Sequence record: MN850636.1
Length of the DNA stretch: 64,000 nt
From: Escherichia phage dune
Reading direction: 5' to 3' (one strand)
Shown: piece after piece, positions 42,995-61,964 of the stretch
Numbering within the stretch: position 1 is the stretch's first letter
Layout: every line of letters starts with the position of its first letter
Made by a program: the position numbers and the translations under genes
Notes under the pieces: model-generated
Told to the model about the DNA's origin: nothing
Database searches by the model: none
Seen by the model: the letters and a program-made list of their open reading frames with translations, nothing else

Positions 42995-43208
42995 TAAAGA
43001 TAACAAATATAATAACGCCGTCCTTACAGAAGATGGTGAGCTTGAAACATTCATTCTTCGTGTTGATGGTAAACTATTCCGGTGTCGTTGTGGGTCAAAC
43101 TGTTTTCATAAACCAGATAAAAATGACTTAGAGCTTTACGCATGTAATGCTTGCAATACTTGGTATCACTCAGAGGTTAAAAATGACAATTCTATACAAA
43201 CAAAATAA
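42990..43208 (+). CDS. Small zinc-binding protein (CxC..CxxC)
   Basis: RCRCGSNCFH and CNACNTW. Confidence 0.4.
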   Translation: MDKDNKYNNAVLTEDGELETFILRVDGKLFRCRCGSNCFHKPDKNDLELYACNACNTWYHSEVKNDNSIQTK

Positions 43209-44283
43209 AGATGGCTCTTTTAACGTCTGGTCATGCGTTGCTGTAGGTAACAAAGTTATTACAACCTACGGTAAAGAAAATGGCAAGATGATGTTTGAAG
43301 AGTATACAGCAGAACCTAAAAACATCGGTAAAAAGAATGAGCGTAACGCTGAACAGCAAGCTCTCTTTGAAGTTGCTGCTAAGTACAAAAAGCAAGTTGA
43401 CCGCAAAGGTTATGCTTACACAAAAGAGTCTGCACAGAATACTGAAAAGGCAGGTGTACAGCTTGCTCATGATGCTGCAAAGGTTAGCCACGCAAAGTAT
43501 TTGAAGTTCCCTGCTGATGCTCAACCAAAACTTGATGGTGTACGTTGCAGAATTTCAAGAGATGCTGATTCAGTTAGTTTCACGGCTTATTCTCGTGAGA
43601 ATACTGTTTACAACGTTCCAGCAGAACTAATCCCAGATTTGCTTTTGCTGCTTAAATTACACCCGCAAGTTGAAGACTTTGATGGCGAGATTTATGCTCA
43701 TGGTTGGGACTTAGAAGATATTGTATCTATGATTAAGAATGCTGACAATCCAGACCGTCACCTTCTTAAATTCTACTGGTATGATATCTGTGACAATTCA
43801 AAATCTTGGCCTGAGCGTCGTGAAGTTATTGATAACTCACCTATTGTTGAGCTTGGGGATGCCTGTAGAGTTGTTCCTGTACAGACTATCCGTGTAAATT
43901 CTTGGGAAGAGTTTGATGAAGCTCATGATAAGTGGGTTGAAGCTAAGTTTGAAGGTGCAATGTACCGTTCAATCTCTGAAGACTCATTCTATGAGTGTTG
44001 TCACCGTTCATACTTCTTGATTAAGCACAAGAAGATGCACACTGAAGAGTTTAAAGTGACTGGTGTAAAGACTGATAAACGTGGTCATGGTAAGTTCGTT
44101 GTAGAGACTCTTCCTAACGTCTTTGTAGATGTCTCATGGAAGACTACTCATGAGAAGAAACAGTATCTTGCTGAGCATCCTGATGAGTTTATCGGGAAAC
44201 CTTTAACGGTACAGTTCCAGAAGATGACTCGTAAGGGGTCTTTGCAGTTCCCTGTTGGGCTAGTTATACGAGATTATGAATAA
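43183..44283 (+). CDS. ATP-dependent DNA ligase (start moved to MTILYKQ)
   Basis: GAGGT RBS; adenylation motif KLDGVRC (KxDG). Confidence 0.8.
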   Translation: MTILYKQNKDGSFNVWSCVAVGNKVITTYGKENGKMMFEEYTAEPKNIGKKNERNAEQQALFEVAAKYKKQVDRKGYAYTKESAQNTEKAGVQLAHDAAKVSHAKYLKFPADAQPKLDGVRCRISRDADSVSFTAYSRENTVYNVPAELIPDLLLLLKLHPQVEDFDGEIYAHGWDLEDIVSMIKNADNPDRHLLKFYWYDICDNSKSWPERREVIDNSPIVELGDACRVVPVQTIRVNSWEEFDEAHDKWVEAKFEGAMYRSISEDSFYECCHRSYFLIKHKKMHTEEFKVTGVKTDKRGHGKFVVETLPNVFVDVSWKTTHEKKQYLAEHPDEFIGKPLTVQFQKMTRKGSLQFPVGLVIRDYE

Positions 44284-44289
44284 AAGTTG

Positions 44290-44317
44290 TTGACATAGAA
44301 AATTTGGTGAGTATACT
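44290..44317 (+). promoter_or_regulatory. Sigma70-type promoter TTGACA-N16-TATACT
   Basis: Consensus -35 and near-consensus -10 hexamers; drives a long leader containing the first GT-rich array. Confidence 0.5.
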
Positions 44318-44319
44318 GA

Positions 44320-44660
44320 GCAGCATAAACCAACGGGTACTCACCAGCATCACTTAAGAGTCTTTTAAAAGGGTTTTTAAGTGATGTGTAGCTCGGTCAG
44401 GTATGGTGCGGTGGTGTAAGGTGGTGTCAGGTGTAGTATGGTGCTGTGATGTGAGGTATGGGTAGTTAGTCTCAGCTACATTAAAATGAGACTCACCTTT
44501 TTAAAAGGCCTTTTAAGAGGGTCTTTTAATGAGGTGGGGTGGTGTAAGGTGGTGTAAGGTCTGGTTCGGTGTGTCGCGGTAAGGGTGGATGGTAGTAGCC
44601 ACGTTAAAAATCTACCAAGTTTCTAAAGAGTCTTCTGTTGAGGGTTCTTTACAAACAACT
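44320..44660 (+). repeat. GT-rich/hairpin composite repeat array 1 (G+T tracts, conserved-loop hairpins at 44468-44493 and 44591-44616, conserved roughly 40 nt AT-rich element at 44496-44535)
   Basis: Top strand nearly C-free within GT tracts; units repeat in a second array at 45758-46145. Confidence 0.6.
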
Positions 44661-44674
44661 TAACAATCAACTAA

Positions 44675-45280
<606 letters not shown>

Positions 45281-45282
45281 TT

Positions 45283-45723
45283 ATGAATACAAAAGCATTA
45301 GCAGCAAAGTTCAGTTACGGTGACACTGTATCACATTCTGAGATGGACACCTTCTTAGGTATTGTGAAGCCAACTTATCAAGGTGACATTGTTAAGTACG
45401 AAGATGAAATGAAGGCTTACGCACTGACACGGTTAAATCGACTTGAGAAGTTTATTGAGAAGCTTCTTAAAGAAGAGAAGATTTATCTGGTTGCTTCAAT
45501 GGGTGTTGGTTATCGTGTGGTTGAACCTAAGCATCAAGCAACTATTGCAAAACGCAAAATGTCTGGTAAAATTGGTCGTGCTTTAAAGCAAGCCACTCAA
45601 GCGATTGAGAATGTGAACACTATGGCGCTTAGCCATCAAGAACGTTCACGACTGATTGAACAGCAAAACCACTTAGCTGCTATGAAAGCTAACATTAATA
45701 AGCAACGTAGAAAACCTTTCTAA
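45283..45723 (+). CDS. Hypothetical coiled-coil protein
   Basis: 146 aa ORF, tightly coupled to upstream gene. Confidence 0.5.
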   Translation: MNTKALAAKFSYGDTVSHSEMDTFLGIVKPTYQGDIVKYEDEMKAYALTRLNRLEKFIEKLLKEEKIYLVASMGVGYRVVEPKHQATIAKRKMSGKIGRALKQATQAIENVNTMALSHQERSRLIEQQNHLAAMKANINKQRRKPF

Positions 45724-45730
45724 GTTGACT

Positions 45731-45757
45731 AGGTAGCCTCTTCGGAGGCTCCTTTTT
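45731..45757 (+). terminator. Rho-independent terminator (AGCCTC-TTCG-GAGGCT plus TTTTT)
   Basis: Tetraloop hairpin with downstream T-run. Confidence 0.6.
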
Positions 45758-46145
45758 AAAAGGTCTTTAAACAGGGTCTTTTAATGAGGTACGGCGCGGT
45801 TAGGTAAGGTCTGGTAGGGTAGGGTGAGGTTTGGTAAAGTGCGGGTAGTTAATCGGAGCTACATTAAAATCCGATTACATCACTTAAGAGTCTTCTAAGA
45901 GGGTTTTTAAGTGATGTTCGGTAGGGTCTGGTAGGGTAAGGTCTGGTCTGGTAGGGTCTGGTAGGGTGAGGTATGGGTAGTTAGTCTCAGCCACATTAAA
46001 ATGAGACTTACCTTTTTAAAAGGTCTTTAAACAGGGTGTTTTAATAAGGTGCTGTATGGTGGGGTAAGGTAGGGTTAGGCGAGGTCAGGTGAGTTTTGGT
46101 ATGGAAGGATGGCAGTAACCTTATAAAAAATCTGCCAAATAAGCT
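45758..46145 (+). repeat. GT-rich/hairpin composite repeat array 2 (hairpins at 45851-45876, 45983-46008, 46110-46137; conserved element at 46010-46050)
   Basis: Same unit architecture as array 1; hairpin stems differ but loops share ACATTAAAAT. Confidence 0.6.
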
Positions 46146-46155
46146 ATAAAGTCTG

Positions 46156-46184
46156 TTGACAAGTCAGGTGTTATAGCTTATTTT
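46156..46184 (+). promoter_or_regulatory. Candidate promoter TTGACA-N17-TATTTT
   Basis: Consensus -35, weak -10. Confidence 0.35.
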
Positions 46185-46228
46185 TATACTCAACGTAATA
46201 CAAAATTTAATATAACTTTGAGGTCATT

Positions 46229-53944: not shown

Positions 53945-61963
<8,019 letters not shown>

Positions 61964-61964
<1 letters not shown>

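Follow-up and report, generated by a model that had tools for sequence, protein, structure and literature searches.

The window analysed here, a stretch of 64,000 nucleotides (64 kb) from Escherichia phage dune (record MN850636.1), belongs to a Felixounavirus of the wV8/SUSP1 type, and the region described below is matched by 258 records among the phage records searched. Between a DNA ligase gene and the gene vipr lies a spacer with a promoter and two repeat units, and vipr is followed by vap1, an intrinsic terminator and a second repeat array:

43147-44283: DNA ligase gene
44284-44692: intergenic spacer between the DNA ligase gene and vipr
44290..44317, + strand: sigma-70 promoter TTGACA-16-TATACT, upstream of vrRNAs A1 and A2 and of vipr
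44693..45280, + strand: vipr, encoding the 195-aa Vipr, a minimal RAMP of the Cas7-like kind
45283..45723, + strand: vap1, encoding a Vipr-accessory protein (146 aa), directly 3' of vipr
45735..45757, + strand: intrinsic terminator AGCCUC-UUCG-GAGGCU with U-run, between vap1 and the downstream array

The promoter, described as near-consensus in an initial annotation made from the sequence alone, agrees with the consensus at 11 of 12 positions in our scan, and a promoter is annotated at the same site in the record of phage AYO145A. The spacer had also been described as non-coding, and indeed no open reading frame of at least 30 aa lies within 44320-44637 on either strand. A consensus scan detected no sigma-70 promoter between the terminator (45735-45757) and the downstream array. 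In the wV8 record, both array regions, upstream and downstream, are labelled 'DR_4' only.

Repeat tracts, pseudoknot tails and flanking hairpins

The arrays are made of five composite units, two in 44320-44660 (A1 and A2) and three in 45724-46228 (B1-B3), each of which consists, in this order, of a 5-nt-periodic (GGYNN)10-13 tract, a tail of about 35 nt and a long AT-rich hairpin. The five hairpin copies counted in the initial annotation therefore exist, but only two of them lie in the upstream region to which they had been assigned. Using the name vrRNA for the guide RNAs discussed below, the elements are as follows:

44347..44387, + strand: 5' flanking hairpin CAUCACUUAAGAGUCUUUU / AGGGUUUUUAAGUGAUG, an inverted repeat of about 19 bp with G.U pairs
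44395..44459, + strand: vrRNA A1 tract, 13 GGYNN repeats parsed in register with the tail; NN string CA AT GC GG AA GG CA GT AT GC GA GA AT
44460..44493, + strand: A1 tail; S1 GUAG/CUAC, S2 AGUCUCA/UGAGACU, loop 3 AUUAAAA
44494..44536, + strand: inter-vrRNA AT-rich hairpin CACCUUUUUAAAAGGCC...GGUCUUUUAAUGAGGUG, about 18 bp, G.U-rich
44533..44582, + strand: vrRNA A2 tract, 10 repeats, one irregular (GTCGC); NN string GG GG AA GG AA CT TC GT GC AA
44583..44617, + strand: A2 tail; S1 GUGG/CCAC, S2 UGGUAG/CUACCA
44619..44656, + strand: hairpin after vrRNA A2, UUUCUAAAGAGUCUUCU...GAGGGUUCUUUACAAAC, just 5' of the vipr ribosome-binding site
45751..45790, + strand: AT-rich hairpin before vrRNA B1, belonging to a repeat family and of the same element type as 44494-44536
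45788..45842, + strand: vrRNA B1 tract, 11 repeats; NN string AC GC TA AA CT AG AG GA TT AA GC
45843..45877, + strand: B1 tail; S1 GUAG/CUAC, S2 UAAUCGGA/UCCGAUUA
45878..45916, + strand: inter-vrRNA hairpin CAUCACUUAAGAGUCUUCU...AGGGUUUUUAAGUGAUG (fold of 45843-45919, z = -5.8)
45915..45974, + strand: vrRNA B2 tract, 12 repeats with low-complexity NN; NN string TC AG CT AG AA CT CT AG CT AG GA AT
45975..46008, + strand: B2 tail; S1 GUAG/CCAC with one A.C mismatch
46009..46051, + strand: inter-vrRNA AT-rich hairpin (fold of 45975-46050, z = -2.1)
46048..46102, + strand: vrRNA B3 tract, 11 repeats; NN string GC AT GG AA AG TA GA CA GA TT AT
46103..46137, + strand: B3 tail; S1 AAGG/CCUU, S2 UGGCAG/CUGCCA

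Consistent with the strong G+T bias noted previously, the tracts at 44395-44459 and 44533-44582 contain 46-50% G, 30-32% T and 6-8% C, as compared with 18% G and 20% C in the window as a whole. Their period is strictly 5 nt. When the 64-kb window was searched for (GGTNN)4GGT, allowing at most one mismatch, 24 matches were obtained, all on the + strand and all between 44395 and 46090, against an expectation of 0 (100 shuffles). To define the repeat more broadly, we parsed 82 vrRNAs in 19 Felixounavirus loci, resulting in 66 unique tracts, most of which have 10-15 repeats. Across these tracts the first position is G in 76% of repeats, and the second is G in 98% and the third a pyrimidine in 100%, the last two values being inflated because the parser accepted only a G and a pyrimidine, respectively, at these positions. 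The fourth and fifth positions (NN) are hypervariable, with an entropy of 1.9 bits each.

Each of the five tails is an H-type pseudoknot of about 35 nt, with two stems (S1 and S2) and an A-rich loop 3. The initial annotation had reported the stems AGTCTCA/TGAGACT and GGTAG/CTACC around a conserved loop, all of which are present as described; its motif GGGTAGTT, said to follow the tracts, is found after the first tract only, the second being followed by GGGTGGAT. The loop owes part of its conservation to a segment (CTAC, CCAC or CCTT) that base-pairs with GTAG, GTGG or AAGG, respectively, 5' of the stem, and it is this pairing that makes the tail an H-type pseudoknot. Both stems are fully paired in 22 of the 23 unique tails from the 19 loci, the B2 tail of phage dune having the sole S1 mismatch. 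In the ungapped tail alignment, pairing holds in 99.5% of cells, and both sides have changed in 8 of the 9 pairs; in controls in which the partner column was shifted by 1-3 positions, only 30-41% of cells pair. The compensatory changes among relatives that had been proposed as a check are thus present and, as the stems differ while pairing is kept, the suggestion of selection on RNA structure is borne out. A scan with Rfam covariance models at a permissive threshold gave only matches with E>=0.9, far below the gathering thresholds, so that no curated Rfam family is matched, whether preQ1-I or another riboswitch with a pseudoknot.

Every vrRNA is bracketed by a G.U-rich hairpin of approximately 18-19 bp. 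The conserved AT-rich element that had been noted at 44496-44535 is real, recurs in the arrays and folds into one of these hairpins, of about 18 bp; the segment 44460-44536 folds at -29.7 kcal/mol (z = -5.65), and among relatives the hairpin at 44494..44536 occurs in 13 sequence variants, all of which keep the fold. For the hairpin at 44347..44387, the RNA fold has a z of -4.0, and 0 of 200 shuffles fold as well. Overall, hairpin z-scores range from -2.1 to -5.8, with the exception of the hairpin at 44619..44656, for which support is weak: it appears in the fold of 44583-44692, a segment that folds no better than its shuffles (z = -1.25). Since the hairpins depend on G.U pairs, they would work only as RNA of the + strand, and we infer that they mark the boundaries of the vrRNAs, for example as processing sites.

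Directly 3' of vrRNA B3, a perfect 13-bp inverted repeat (AAATAAGCTATAA / TTATAGCTTATTT, 46138-46190) encloses the -35 box (TTGACA, 46156) of the promoter of the next operon. The best self match of vrRNA B2, which was sub-threshold, brought up a 36-nt sequence, TTCCCCACTAAGTAAAGTCCTTAAACTAGGAGATTC, that is present twice on the - strand, approximately 2.7 kb apart (2334-2369 and 5005-5040); the pair is probably a separate intergenic direct repeat of phage dune.

Vipr and the published VIPR system

A profile search of PDB sequences with the vipr product retrieved entry 36pp, 'SUSP1 Vipr protein' (E=3e-81), and the two proteins are 97.9% identical; between vap1 and its positional counterpart in SUSP1, identity is 99.3%. 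The AlphaFold (AF2) model of Vipr has a pLDDT of 95, and the best 50 Foldseek matches of this model are all Csm3 or type VII Cas7. The fold is that of a Cas7/Csm3/Cmr4-like RAMP, with Csm3 and Cmr4 as the top structural matches. We detected 520 homologues of Vipr; it contains no Pfam domain, and its C-terminal G-rich loop is invariant. Neither Pfam nor PHROGs nor PADLOC provided a function for vipr or vap, or a RAMP match. With the vap model (pLDDT 72), the fold search returned generic helical hairpins only. In many loci, including those of distant phages, the RAMP gene is followed by a partner gene of about 150 aa that evolves rapidly.

Several candidates that had been considered for the repeats were dropped upon identification of the flanking gene as a RAMP and then as Vipr: a TRAP-like ring-protein site, a type III toxin-antitoxin (TA) antitoxin, a Shine-Dalgarno or tRNA-CCA sponge, boxA-like antitermination, Chi-like sites, an R-loop origin and a telomerase-like template.

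Viral Interference Programmable Repeat (VIPR) is the subject of two bioRxiv preprints of April 2026 (10.64898/2026.04.26.720920 and 10.64898/2026.04.26.720927), the stage at which its publication stands. They describe a CRISPR-related system for RNA-guided DNA silencing, which their authors propose predates CRISPR. It comprises the RAMP Vipr, a vap gene and vrRNAs, each with 9-16 YNNGG repeats and an invariant 3' tail that in the SUSP1 clade takes the form of a pseudoknot (10.64898/2026.04.26.720920). In SUSP1, small-RNA sequencing revealed vrRNAs as transcripts of about 100 nt, which co-purify with Vipr in pull-downs; the NN dinucleotides read DNA with a 1-nt skip, and no PAM is required (10.64898/2026.04.26.720920). 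Targets, defined by a match of at least 80% of NN positions, are typically competing mobile elements, without self-targeting; the natural targets of the SUSP1 clade converge on a satellite phage, target transcription was silenced in SUSP1 GFP or lambda assays, and vap1 enhances protection (10.64898/2026.04.26.720920). By cryo-EM, the complex is a right-handed filament with one Vipr protomer per repeat, in which H17, D177, R138, W178, R179, E71, M72 and C173 sequester GGY and the NN bases are displayed so that they can pair in a gapped manner, with formation of an R-loop triplex (10.64898/2026.04.26.720927). All eight of these contact residues are present in the Vipr of phage dune; position 175 is V, where the structural preprint names T.

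The initial annotation did not recognise this architecture, which was reasonable for the older literature (nothing relevant came up when we searched it for the repeats of Felix O1 and wV8, for origins and for Cas7-like proteins), but a description of it, under the name VIPR, appeared in April 2026. As far as the SUSP1 type II system is set out in the preprints, phage dune shares with it the orthologous vipr and vap1, the design of GGYNN repeats and pseudoknot tail, the tail types, the class of target (an E. coli satellite that carries phage tail genes) and a skipped base at the wobble position. It differs in having two upstream vrRNAs where SUSP1 has one, and in NN strings of its own, A1 being unusually degenerate at the first G. 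We found no description of the flanking G.U-rich hairpins, or of a maturation step for type II arrays, in the accessible text of the preprints. Tentatively, and somewhat short of even odds, these hairpins may be maturation signals, for example sites for host RNase III, at which polycistronic precursors would be cut into vrRNAs of about 100 nt.

With the backbones of class 1 CRISPR systems (Cas7, Csm3 and Cmr4), Vipr has in common a RAMP with RRM core, G-loop and thumb and, according to the preprints, a helical polymer on a guide RNA with periodic base flipping; in both, a structured handle that is conserved caps the variable part of the guide. In contrast to these systems, the VIPR register, as reported, is 5 nt rather than 6 nt, GGY is recognised sequence-specifically, and the guide is noncontiguous, with only NN pairing and a 1-nt target skip. 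Furthermore, VIPR lacks a repeat-spacer array, Cas1/Cas2 and Cas6, and no Pfam RAMP model detects Vipr. The phage dune locus is not a CRISPR-Cas system: we found neither an array of identical repeats and spacers nor cas1/cas2 or other cas genes. TRAP of Bacillus and its (G/U)AG-NN RNA also resemble VIPR, in that an oligomer reads a triplet every ~5 nt with one subunit per repeat; however, the fold is unrelated, and TRAP forms a closed ring whose role lies in attenuation, not in guiding DNA recognition.

Guide targets in a satellite island

We searched five E. coli loci and the window for targets of the five vrRNAs, using the published query rule, in which GGY is replaced by n. The best natural match was obtained with A1, despite its degenerate first G: 25 of 26 NN positions (96%) match within the tape-measure gene of a satellite (locus L152, 5495-5533), and in three other satellite variants A1 matches at 23-24 of 26 positions. 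B1 matches at 21 of 22 positions (95%), 48-80 nt upstream of a satellite gene (L155, 8334-8366), and B3 at 20 of 22 (91%) inside a satellite gene (L154, 9036-9068; L155, 9342-9374). In shuffled 24-kb controls the NN match reached at most 0.73-0.80. With A1 and B3 alike, it is the wobble base of the codon that is skipped. For A2 and B2, neither these five E. coli loci nor the window gave a target exceeding background, which we count against the assignment to VIPR. Within the 64-kb window no site reaches 80%, the best self match being 77%.

The targeted island of E. coli is about 12 kb long and encodes a tape-measure protein, a serine recombinase, a baseplate protein and an HNH endonuclease. Its A1 target encodes QMAGKGQVMAEE. 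The homologous site in the tape-measure gene of phage dune itself (60874-60912, - strand, in the open reading frame 59736-61964) matches A1 at 20 of 26 NN positions, below the 80% criterion, and its 12-residue peptide differs from that of the satellite; overall, the two tape-measure proteins are 29% identical. Judged by these sequences, the A1 guide would separate helper from satellite within a conserved motif, consistent with self/non-self discrimination.

The targeted satellite has a stand-alone vrRNA of its own (L152, 11921-12120, in the island of E. coli EC12). This vrRNA has a TTGACG-17-TATAAT promoter and an intrinsic terminator, and its 11-13 GGYNN repeats are followed by the GGGTGGAT tail that vrRNA A2 also has. 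The satellite element occurs in 55 E. coli genomes. No homologue of vipr or vap was detected in the satellite at E<=1, and the satellite may therefore borrow the Vipr of its helper phage. Beyond the satellite, in the host spacer between cmoB and torZ (L152, 16574-16612), its vrRNA matches at 23 of 26 NN positions, at a site that by eye resembles an E. coli REP element; this match could be due to chance or could be a real host target.

A type II VIPR locus and alternative readings

We conclude, with a probability of roughly 0.95, that phage dune, as a wV8/SUSP1-like Felixounavirus, has a type II VIPR locus, of which the region 44320-44660 forms the upstream half. The GT tracts and hairpins of this region are two guide RNAs, vrRNAs A1 and A2, of a system that is already known. 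The protein recognition site suspected in the initial annotation corresponds to RNA that, in SUSP1, the preprints report to be bound by Vipr. By analogy with that phage, the promoter at 44290 would transcribe A1 and A2 and then vipr and vap1, with the B1-B3 vrRNAs following downstream of vap1; Vipr would polymerise along each tract, one protomer per pentamer, flipping out and sequestering each GGY and presenting the NN dinucleotides. These would base-pair with double-stranded DNA, every third target base being skipped (xNN), and the bound complex would repress transcription of its targets, in phage dune the genes of the ~12-kb satellite-like E. coli island with phage tail genes. The vrRNA transcript ends in phage dune are likewise placed by reference to those of SUSP1, and vrRNA expression, co-purification with Vipr and target silencing are predicted from that phage. 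In addition to the A2 and B2 guides, we count against this reading the intrinsic terminator that separates vap1 from B1-B3, the T or A that replaces the first G in 5 of the 13 A1 repeats, and the irregular repeat in each of A2 and B3.

The link between arrays and vipr is not specific to this genus. In a scan of IMG/VR that used only the pattern (GGYNN)10, and hence was independent of the literature, at least 120 loci were found, and a Vipr homologue is encoded in 85 of 120 loci among the matches listed. G-rich arrays with a 5-nt period also flank distant vipr homologues (37-40% identity) on unrelated viral contigs, and in some of these arrays GGC takes the place of GGT. Among the phage records, Vipr is encoded in only 129, as compared with the 258 that match the ligase-proximal DNA, and the cassette therefore appears to be accessory within the genus.

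The initial annotation regarded the region as a long 5' leader. A predicted transcript from a strong promoter does cover it, but as an array of discrete vrRNAs it is not a mere leader. We consider it very unlikely that the region is a cis-acting leader in which AGGT/GGT motifs titrate an RNA-binding factor or 30S, or in which two-quartet G-quadruplexes form, so as to regulate the downstream genes. Such a leader would fit the position of the tracts between a strong promoter and the first gene; some of the motifs are Shine-Dalgarno-like, and the G2N3 spacing could in principle give two-tetrad quadruplexes. However, the same units are also found downstream of the operon, past the terminator, and elsewhere the arrays mostly follow vipr (71 of 85 loci among the IMG/VR matches listed). 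Neither the proposed AGGT/GAGGT sponge nor a quadruplex needs a fixed GGY, hypervariable NN and NN strings that match satellite genes, and in the cryo-EM structure, as reported, the guanines of each GG are held individually by Vipr protomers (10.64898/2026.04.26.720927), which argues against the quadruplexes envisaged for the spaced G-runs.

Extremely improbable, in our view, is an element that acts as DNA, either an R-loop-primed replication origin or an iteron- or centromere-like protein-binding array. The adjoining DNA ligase and DNA polymerase genes, the G-rich strand asymmetry with its 5-bp or 10-bp period and the nearby AT-rich element would suit it. However, co-orientation of the arrays with vipr is absolute (285 on the same strand and 0 on the opposite strand, at 85 loci among the IMG/VR matches listed), as in phage dune, where the arrays on both sides of vipr lie on the + strand. 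Moreover, the covarying pseudoknots and the G.U-dependent hairpins work only as + strand RNA, the published biochemistry, to the extent given in the preprints, accounts for the repeats, and other phages carry the cassette at quite different positions, temperate phages having it inserted among tail or head genes. Distant copies are inserted among the tail genes of mycobacteriophage LittleE and Pseudomonas phage Medea1, and in a Streptomyces prophage the cassette has the portal gene on one side and the terminase gene on the other.

A type III toxin-antitoxin-like module, in which a repeat RNA would neutralise an RNase-type RAMP toxin in the manner of ToxI/ToxN, is suggested by tandem pseudoknot RNA repeats that adjoin a small RAMP-fold protein with a terminator nearby, but can be practically dismissed, as the units are about 130 nt long and variable where precise repeats of 34-45 nt would be expected, their NN content matches foreign DNA, and the function reported in the accessible text is DNA binding and silencing, with no report of toxicity (10.64898/2026.04.26.720920).

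The phage dune locus is thus an instance of a known VIPR system, its Vipr being 98% identical to that of SUSP1, and the residual novelty is small. It illustrates that a real guide-RNA array can be flagged from sequence alone. VIPR itself recognises DNA by RNA guides in a way that has only recently been described, and the locus yields five natural guides for it, with targets identifiable for three of them. For wV8-like phages, two 'hypothetical' genes and two 'DR_4 repeat' regions can be re-annotated as a weapon of phage against satellite.
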